Source of the DNA: Eledone cirrhosa
Lineage: Eukaryota
Length of the DNA: 64,000 nucleotides
Direction of reading: 5' to 3'
NCBI GenBank assembly: GCA_964016885.1
Contig: OZ024740.1
Span: 357,554,001-357,618,000, forward strand
Shown: piece by piece, positions 53,451 through 54,627 of the stretch
Numbering within the stretch: the stretch's first letter is position 1
How the letters are laid out: every line of letters starts with the position of its first letter
Program-made: the position numbers and the translations under genes
Notes under the pieces: generated by a model
Database searches by the model: none
Told to the model about the DNA's origin: nothing
Seen by the model: the letters and a program-made list of their open reading frames with translations, nothing else

Positions 53451-53602
53451 AAATTTAGCCAGATTGAAGTATACTAATTATTATACTACAGTTTGTCCAT
53501 ATCGATTTAAAATAATAAATCAACGAAGACGAACTGTATTGCCAAGAGGCCGTGATGTTTAGACACATTTAAATTTCAAAATCAAACCTGTTCCGTAGAT
53601 AA

Positions 53603-53678
53603 GTTTAAACTTTAAGATCCAAATATGTTTCGAGTTAAATAAGTGTAAGAATATCATGTCCTGCTCTCCTCAGTAAAC
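53603..53678 (-). ncRNA. Type I hammerhead ribozyme, family H (inverted arm)
   Basis: Reverse complement of 54181-54256. Confidence 0.65.
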
Positions 53679-54180
53679 ATCCAGAGACAAATTGATATGC
53701 TTTACTTCTAAATAATTTAAAAGACTGCGTGACGCACATGGTTTTACAGTATCTAACTAGTCTCATAACCGTACTGCTAGAAATAACAGTCGTATATGTG
53801 AGGCGGCTTGCAGCTCAAACTAGGAGCAGTTAAAATTAATAAGGTAATGAATTCTTTTACAATGGAATCAGCTCGAAGGAGGAAAATACCCCCTGAGCAG
53901 TGTATATATACAGATGTGTTGGTATCTGTGTTTCATCACATACATATTAATTTATACACTGCTCAGGGGGTATTTTCCTCCTTCGAGCTGATTCCATTGT
54001 AAAAGAATTCATTACCTTATTAATTTTAACTGCTCCTAGTTTGAGCTGCAAGCCGCCTCATATATACGACTGTTATTTCTAGCAGTACGGTTATGAGACT
54101 AATTAGATACTGTAAAACCATGTGCGTCACGCAGTCTTTTAAATTATTTAGAAGTGAAGCATATCAATTTGTCTCTGGAT

Positions 54181-54256
54181 GTTTACTGAGGAGAGCAGGA
54201 CATGATATTCCTACACTTATTTAACTCGAAACATATTTGGATCTTAAAGTTTAAAC
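54181..54256 (+). ncRNA. Type I hammerhead ribozyme, family H
   Basis: GUUUA-CUGAGGA-GAG...CUC-GAAAC-AUAUUUGGAUCUUAAA-GUU/UAAAC. Confidence 0.7.
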
Positions 54257-54529
54257 TTCTCTACGGAACAGGTTTGATTTTGAAATTTAAATGTGTCTAA
54301 ACATCACGGCCTCTTGGCAATACAGTTCGTCTTCGTTGATTTATTATTTTAAATCGATATGGACAAACTGTAGTATAATAATTAGTATACTTCAATCTGG
54401 CTAAATTTTTCTTTTGCAATATGTGTTGGTATCTGTGTTTCATCACATACATATTAATTTATACACTGCTCAGGGGGTATTTTCCTCCTTCGAGCTGATT
54501 CCATTGTAAAAGAATTCATTACCTTATTA

Positions 54530-54627
<98 letters not shown>

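Follow-up and report, generated by a model that had tools for sequence, protein, structure and literature searches.

A dispersed 517-nt hammerhead repeat family with a Penelope-type insertion footprint in the genome of Eledone cirrhosa

The insertion studied here belongs to a dispersed family of non-coding, head-to-tail repeats of 517 nt, which carry one hammerhead motif per unit and whose copies bear the marks of insertion by Penelope-type elements (PLEs). It lies in a window of 64,000 nt (contig OZ024740.1, positions 357554001-357618000, in a 3.0-Gb genome), to which all coordinates below refer. That the family is a non-autonomous, PLE-type hammerhead repeat is a conclusion in which we place high confidence. 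With distinctly less assurance, we lean towards a full circular-template mechanism, in which the non-coding 517-nt repeat would be mobilised in trans by a PLE from a circular RNA. The class proposed by the initial annotation, a hammerhead retrozyme using PLE machinery, stands: the repeat is non-coding, arranged head to tail and marked by PLE insertion.

The window copy is bracketed by (TA)n microsatellites, the likely target, on the left (52330 to 53448/53449) and on the right (54533/54534 to 54803), in keeping with the TA runs found around the outer ends of the sampled loci. Its sense part (+ strand) begins with a complete 517-nt non-coding monomer at 53904-54420, consisting of the 10-nt spacer ATATATACAG (53904-53913) and unit positions 1-507, and continues into a partial second unit (positions 1-113, 54421-54533, +). 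The exact 113-nt direct repeat described earlier is real (53914-54026 and 54421-54533, at a spacing of 507), and the spacer is missing between the two units, at 54420/54421. Equally real is the inverted copy upstream, first given as 455 bp: the arm (53450 to ~53906, - strand) covers unit positions ~40-496 and differs from the unit by 5 substitutions in ~457 bp (468 nt at 98% in another comparison). The unit was rightly called non-coding, its longest stop-free stretch being 59 codons. The near-identical arms had been taken as a sign of recent insertion, and the copy does appear young; its arm divergence of ~1.1% is, however, about the family average (1.2-1.4%), so that it would not be unusually so. 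With a single hammerhead in its sense part, the window copy by itself should be unable to release a monomer.

The left arm is atypical for the family in that its outer end lies at unit position 496 and in that it starts beside site A (see below) at a TATA microhomology, where it joins the sense arm. It likely stems either from fold-back synthesis at TATA or from second priming off-site, of the twin-priming kind familiar from L1; both would give such an arm. We also observed branch-point-, polypyrimidine-tract- and CAG-like sequences at the unit boundary (53895-53916 and 54400-54423), followed by an ATG and a 25-codon hydrophobic frame; the boundary CAG is not conserved in a 547-nt sister family. 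At 54810-55240 there is a fold-back repeat with a long hairpin (~55030-55150), which also occurs beside locus L252.

To describe the family, we took a position-based sample comprising the first 100 matches to a 29-mer from the unit, which correspond to 50 loci of contig C1 taken whole, and kept apart from it a set of 32 best-hit loci, giving 82 loci together. In other copies neighbouring matches to the 507-mer are separated by 10 nt, which always read ATATATACAG, and locus L047 shows seven successive 517-nt spacings. The unit of 507 bp originally put forward was therefore rejected in favour of 517 nt, the window copy having lost 10 nt at one junction, a deletion found in it alone among the 82 loci listed. 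A genome search with the 507-mer returned at least 154 matches (the best 40 of 1359 candidates scored), the 29-mer has 615 exact matches in the genome against 0 for a control, and a degenerate cut-site motif, which also captures sister families, has 2132 against 0. The family is thus dispersed in several hundred copies, with arrays of up to seven or more units; the head-to-tail copies for which a genome search had been proposed turned out to be periodic 517-nt multimers. More than one unit is contained in 28 of 79 arms, with position 517 wrapping directly to position 1, and more than two units in 5 of 79. Four public runs, which come from two studies, have contigs with the same wrap, and in run X1 the unique flank is evenly covered at about 2x with no differences, as expected of DNA. 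Sister families likewise form closed loops of ~540 nt, one of them of 547 nt. The 517-nt family accordingly has the short, non-coding, head-to-tail unit that characterises retrozymes.

The insertion footprint is written in the 3' ends of the arms. Within the position sample, 79 of 86 arms end at one of two places: 44 at site A (unit positions 38-47) and 35 at site B (105-118), with 7 ending elsewhere. Site A (unit position ~43; 53950-53956, +) is the commonest 3' end of the family and the putative first start of reverse transcription, and site B (unit positions ~107-115; 54020-54028, +) is a second fixed 3' end ~68 nt past it, resembling a PLE-type tail. The two sites are used as a pair: 27 of the 35 two-arm loci in this sample combine A with B, one combines A with A, none B with B, the other 7 being atypical in an end or in their layout, while the best-hit set has A and B in 14 of 17 two-arm loci, with 3 atypical. 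Among assignable two-arm loci, A+B thus accounts for 41 of 42 (27/28 and 14/14). Single-arm loci end at A in 11 cases out of 15. Outer 3' ends lie in TA runs in 75 of 85 cases and outer 5' ends in 6 of 15. Retrozyme TSDs, where there are any, exceed 4 bp; here TSD-like flanks were seen at 4 of 50 loci (shuffled mean 0.64, maximum 3), a count to be read knowing that pure (TA)n hides TSDs. The family therefore combines two fixed 3' ends and a one-sided tail with 5' truncation, partial tandems, an inverted 5' arm and an AT-rich or microsatellite target, all of them features of PLE insertion. The 547-nt sister family shows this geometry too, its ends lying at 51 and 135, and so does a coding PLE that is intact in the same genome, whose two ends are separated by ~55 nt and lie in (TA)n.

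Insertions that combine tandem and inverted copies and have a tail on one side are known for PLEs (PMC8557442, PMC3846280), and an anole PLE, Poseidon_Ac, has two internal start sites in vitro which explain the PLE tail (PMC11167929). In the light of the A+B rule, the Penelope 'tail' reflects the use of two starts, one for each strand of a single insertion. With two fixed 3' ends in the family and site B at ~111, the '113-nt read-around' of the window copy ends at site B, the second of the family's two fixed starts. Since the two junctions of the copy are unlike each other, it did not come from a 507-nt circle, and taken alone the 1.2-mer does not speak for a circle.

The second defining component is the ribozyme. 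A scan identified the core CUGAGGA...GAAAC in the unit, and two folds share it, a short GUU fold and a long fold with GUC at 54295-54297. The long fold is a type I motif (54178-54305, +) found by scan, fold and covariation, with an 8-bp stem I (54178-54185/54298-54305), the core at 54186-54192, a 3-bp stem II (54193-54195/54225-54227), GAAA at 54228-54231 and a long helix III of ~28 bp (54231-54296); its predicted cut is GUC|U at 54297/54298 (unit 384/385). The motif scan also places a hammerhead in the inverted arm (53554-53681, -; core at 53673, predicted cut after 53562). An Rfam search gave no hammerhead match in the window copy.

Positions within the motif are numbered according to what we take to be the hammerhead scheme. 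For covariation, 23 copies were picked from 86 distinct motifs and 2 damaged rows dropped, leaving 21 diverse copies that span sister families; as these sequences are related, the shuffle counts should not be read as probabilities. Of the long stem I, 93.5% is paired, and 6 of its 8 pairs show double-sided changes; all 3 stem II pairs and the core 3-8 pair covary, and helix III shows one-sided changes only. Among the 86 distinct motifs, 77 have C-G as the core 3-8 pair, 6 have U-A and 3 have U-G. The double-sided changes in stem I and the covariation of the core pair suggest that the ribozyme motif is under selection. In the short GUU fold, pairing in the 5-bp stem I stands at 76%; one of its pairs is disrupted in 15 of 21 copies and two show double changes, and 3 of 21 copies do not form C15.2-G16.2. 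The GUU|U cut at 54251/54252 favoured at first is hence disfavoured, although possible as a minor fold, and the GUC|U cut is the better supported prediction by stem I pairing and covariation. The claim of one hammerhead per unit, on the other hand, is borne out by the core, the three stems and their covariation, despite the lack of an Rfam match. U3-A8 is a described natural covariation (PMC4209133).

Structure predictions give a mixed picture of the long fold. Its stems I and III appear in the predicted monomer structure, and in the circular prediction for the window monomer stem I has a pairing probability of 0.77-0.92 and helix III of 0.87-1.0; stem II has a probability of ~0 in the predicted circular ensemble, and stem I is unpaired in the predictions for two other monomers (family-B and L047). 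The fold of the window unit is stable (z = -4.19 linear, -4.89 circular), and all three monomers folded as circles show the stable self-paired structure typical of retrozymes (z -3.9 to -5.7, 30 shuffles each). Helix III is a 36-37-nt tandem duplication (37 nt in the window), with halves identical at 28 of 34 positions in one lineage and 19 of 33 here, and it may mimic the helix formed by dimeric hammerheads. We considered a single-copy helix III as an ancestral family but found no support for it: there are 23 matches, several loci have both forms, and the pattern looks like recurrent deletion. Sister lineages with U3-A8, U3-G8 or U4C cores (L252-L264, L271-L293) have many dispersed copies. 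In a sister lineage, 19 of the 22 motifs listed (mostly from one lineage) are without the G10.1-C11.1 pair and yet have spread, which makes it a natural test of the need for cleavage.

What the arms were copied from can be approached through their homogeneity and their ends. At 24 polymorphic sites, with locus L047 left out, 15 of 796 comparisons between direct repeats of one locus are mismatches (1.9%), as are 5 of 569 between opposite arms, against 30.7% between loci. There are 11 cases, spread over 10 of 40 loci, in which every direct copy has the same rare allele. The low mismatch and these shared alleles suggest one template per insertion; against this, most rare alleles (160) are confined to a single copy. 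Furthermore, the cut site is crossed by 46 of 79 arms and at least twice by 11 of 79, so that the family, but not the window copy, includes 'active' copies with two or more consecutive hammerheads in the sense given in the available text of Li 2026. Ends per 100 nt amount to 0.21 in lap 1, 0.35 in lap 2 and 0.21 in laps 3 and beyond, with no cliff past one lap. Because most copies end at A and daughters use B, a linear template would be expected to lose one unit per round, unless long arrays feed the family, and a circular template would be the simplest escape from this loss. A parent-daughter allele-linkage test found no pair. Overall, the family statistics make what we consider a moderate case for a circle.

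Under the circular-template mechanism, a locus with at least two hammerheads would be transcribed and cut at GUC|U (unit 384/385), and the monomer ligated into a circle; the predicted RNA is 517 nt long, joined at GUC/U 54297/54298. A PLE protein would then nick (TA)n, with reverse transcription initiated at A for one strand and, ~68 nt downstream in the 3' direction, at B for the other. Copying, as the arms show, halts at ~0.2-0.35 ends per 100 nt, passing the unit boundary and the cut site, and leaves anything from stubs to several units; the two cDNAs would be joined head to head via microhomology. For the window copy this would mean a sense arm begun at site B, with a 10-nt slip at one junction and a length of 1.2 units; given its one sense hammerhead, it is probably a dead end. 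A broader version, which we advance tentatively as something short of an even bet, sees the family as an animal retrozyme lineage whose circle would be copied repeatedly by a PLE reverse transcriptase, leaving the two-site footprint, and whose duplication would make helix III intramolecular, so that a monomer could cut itself. A retrozyme mobiliser and PLE copying of circles have been proposed and remain unproven in the available parts of the literature (PMC7229834; 10.64898/2026.07.22.740005; PMC11167929).

The best surviving rival keeps the PLE and dispenses with the circle: the same element would be copied from long uncut linear transcripts of DNA-homogenised 'master' arrays, its ribozyme being weak or acting elsewhere. 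There is precedent in the anole PLE, for which hammerhead cleavage is dispensable for insertion in vitro and uncut RNA is the main substrate (PMC11167929). A further point against the circular-template mechanism is that only 1 of 9 Xenopus retrozymes cleaved in vitro (10.64898/2026.07.22.740005). Long arrays do occur, and the seven-unit array of L047 is a mosaic, with two alleles fixed in one arm and absent from the other, which points to local expansion at the DNA level. The damaged stem II base in one sister lineage and the copying through the cut site are also what uncut RNA would lead one to expect. However, the small number of arms longer than two units, the covariation of stem I and the core pair, and the presence of many haplotypes, each homogeneous within its locus, which would call for many homogeneous masters, all weigh against it, and we regard this explanation as rather unlikely.

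Tandem arms could also be produced without a circle if ribozyme-cut linear monomers were copied by end-to-end template jumps. Nine 5' ends at 390-406, just 3' of the cut, might be read as run-off, and the stretch 345-384 has 0 ends in 2440 nt at risk where 5.8 are expected (P about 0.003). Yet no end falls at 385, the end rate at 385-424 equals that at 425-504 (0.37 and 0.36 per 100 nt), and the stretch 345-384 that lacks ends is where the long hairpin lies. Jumps should also mix haplotypes, contrary to the low mismatch between direct repeats, and we consider them quite improbable.

Less credible again, and largely refuted, is the idea that the insertion is a truncated pLTR of a coding PLE. 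Its appeal lies in the layout, tandem plus inverted with a one-sided tail, which is standard for coding PLEs (PMC8557442, PMC3846280), and in the possible splice acceptor and ATG at the unit boundary (53895-53916). The initial annotation had itself named the outcome that would speak for it, a unit that is only the UTR of a coding PLE, with no periodicity. Against this, multimers exist, the 517-to-1 wrap is found in all arms longer than one unit, sister families form closed loops, and none of the 82 loci continues into PLE coding sequence: in a tblastn search with 8 PLE proteins, matches occurred at 6 of these loci, all flanking or on the opposite strand. Sister-family loci likewise have no PLE coding continuation, and no ORF combining RT with GIY-YIG, as in autonomous PLEs, was found between pLTRs. 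Least plausible of all, and refuted for the family, is a local DNA duplication or assembly artefact beside microsatellites with a chance hammerhead look-alike: long flanks of (TA)n invite errors, no other locus among the 82 listed has the 10-nt loss and Rfam recognises no hammerhead, but hundreds of dispersed copies have fixed ends, the arms differ at 5 sites, the stems covary and the wrap recurs in the four public runs.

Coding PLEs are present both in the window and elsewhere in the genome. At 23916-25172 (-) there are 418 aa of a PLE ORF for reverse transcriptase and endonuclease, a fragment that includes a Cx4CxxC linker and for which 148 relatives were found. We presume it to be Neptune-like, partly on the basis of its motifs. 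That label also draws on the available text of Craig 2021 (PMC8557442). Elsewhere in the genome, an intact family related to this fragment combines a minimal hammerhead with ends in (TA)n. The region 41058-43577 (-) has nothing in common with the 517-nt unit. Between 9890 and 10745, two more elements that have hammerhead-like cores are nested in (TA)n, an inverted pair (10062-10137, -, and 10260-10335, +) and a minimal motif (10472-10521, -); the pair recurs beside 7 other loci and the motif beside 32. A young, intact PLE at loci L207, L213 and L216 has a tandem period of 4205 nt, overlapping frames of 472 and 775 aa, a minimal hammerhead-like motif, a (TA)n target and 3' ends ~55 nt apart, and we name it as a candidate for the helper enzyme. 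Partner searches with relatives of the window PLE ORF and a second PLE-like ORF found none among the best ~50 of more than 50,000 candidates, and motif searches for the sister families found none either. The unit has no alignable sequence in common with three sampled coding PLE families (80 loci, with overlaps), which speaks against the proposed mobilisation in trans, and a Pfam search returned no match on five window ORFs. Two widely spaced copy pairs considered as a partner proved to be segmental duplications, and a CTTATTAAT end common to the unit and the intact 775-aa PLE was discarded, as its alignment scores fall within the shuffled range.

How does this family compare with known systems, each source being taken for the parts of it that were available? 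It resembles animal non-LTR retrozymes in being non-coding, low in GC and arranged head to tail, with one type I hammerhead motif per unit and a stable predicted fold, in occurring as monomers, dimers and multimers, and in having coding PLEs nearby (PMC7229834; 10.64898/2026.07.22.740005). Its 517 nt are above the 150-450 bp of one account (PMC7229834) and within the 51-972 bp of another (10.64898/2026.07.22.740005). Unlike the short helix III described for metazoan motifs (PMC7229834), that of this family reaches ~28 bp through its 37-nt duplication, and its loop II is long (~29 nt). The two-site ends, head-to-head inversion and (TA)n targeting of PLEs, which are found here, are not described for retrozymes in the available text of these sources (PMC7229834; 10.64898/2026.07.22.740005). 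Compared with animal retrozymes, cleavage and circles are here predictions made from sequence.

With EN+ PLEs (PMC11167929; PMC3846280; PMC8557442), the family has in common two internal 3' ends, 5' truncation, partial tandems, an inverted 5'-truncated arm, an AT-rich or microsatellite target and a hammerhead upstream of the starts. It differs in the length of its tail, ~68 nt here and 84 nt for the sister family as against 30-40 bp (PMC11167929; PMC8557442), and in having no ORF, a full instead of a minimal hammerhead, and no sequence link to the sampled coding families. Chlamys elements such as MRC1 are also non-coding PLE parasites with pLTRs and multicopy head-to-tail insertions; these are algal, belong to a clade without canonical hammerheads and have 3' ends resembling their autonomous partners (PMC8557442). 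Fungal and protist PLE hammerheads are likewise of type I with a long helix III, and in one case, from a fungus, the monomer cleaved itself in vitro; they sit, however, in telomeric EN-minus coding PLEs, and a duplication origin of helix III is not described in the available text (PMC4209133).

In the literature screened by title and beginning of abstract, neither the family nor a PLE two-site tail on a retrozyme is described, and supplementary tables of retrozyme consensus sequences could hold similar cases. If the broader version is correct, the footprint would tie retrozyme circles directly to the PLE machinery at the level of the genome, a connection so far argued from co-occurrence and pLTR homology. 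The family offers a 517-nt substrate with a predicted cut site, two start sites and a defined target, and the natural variation of its sister families puts the ribozyme to the test. The retrozyme class itself is already known; within it, this family stands out by its PLE-type insertion footprint and its unusual ribozyme.
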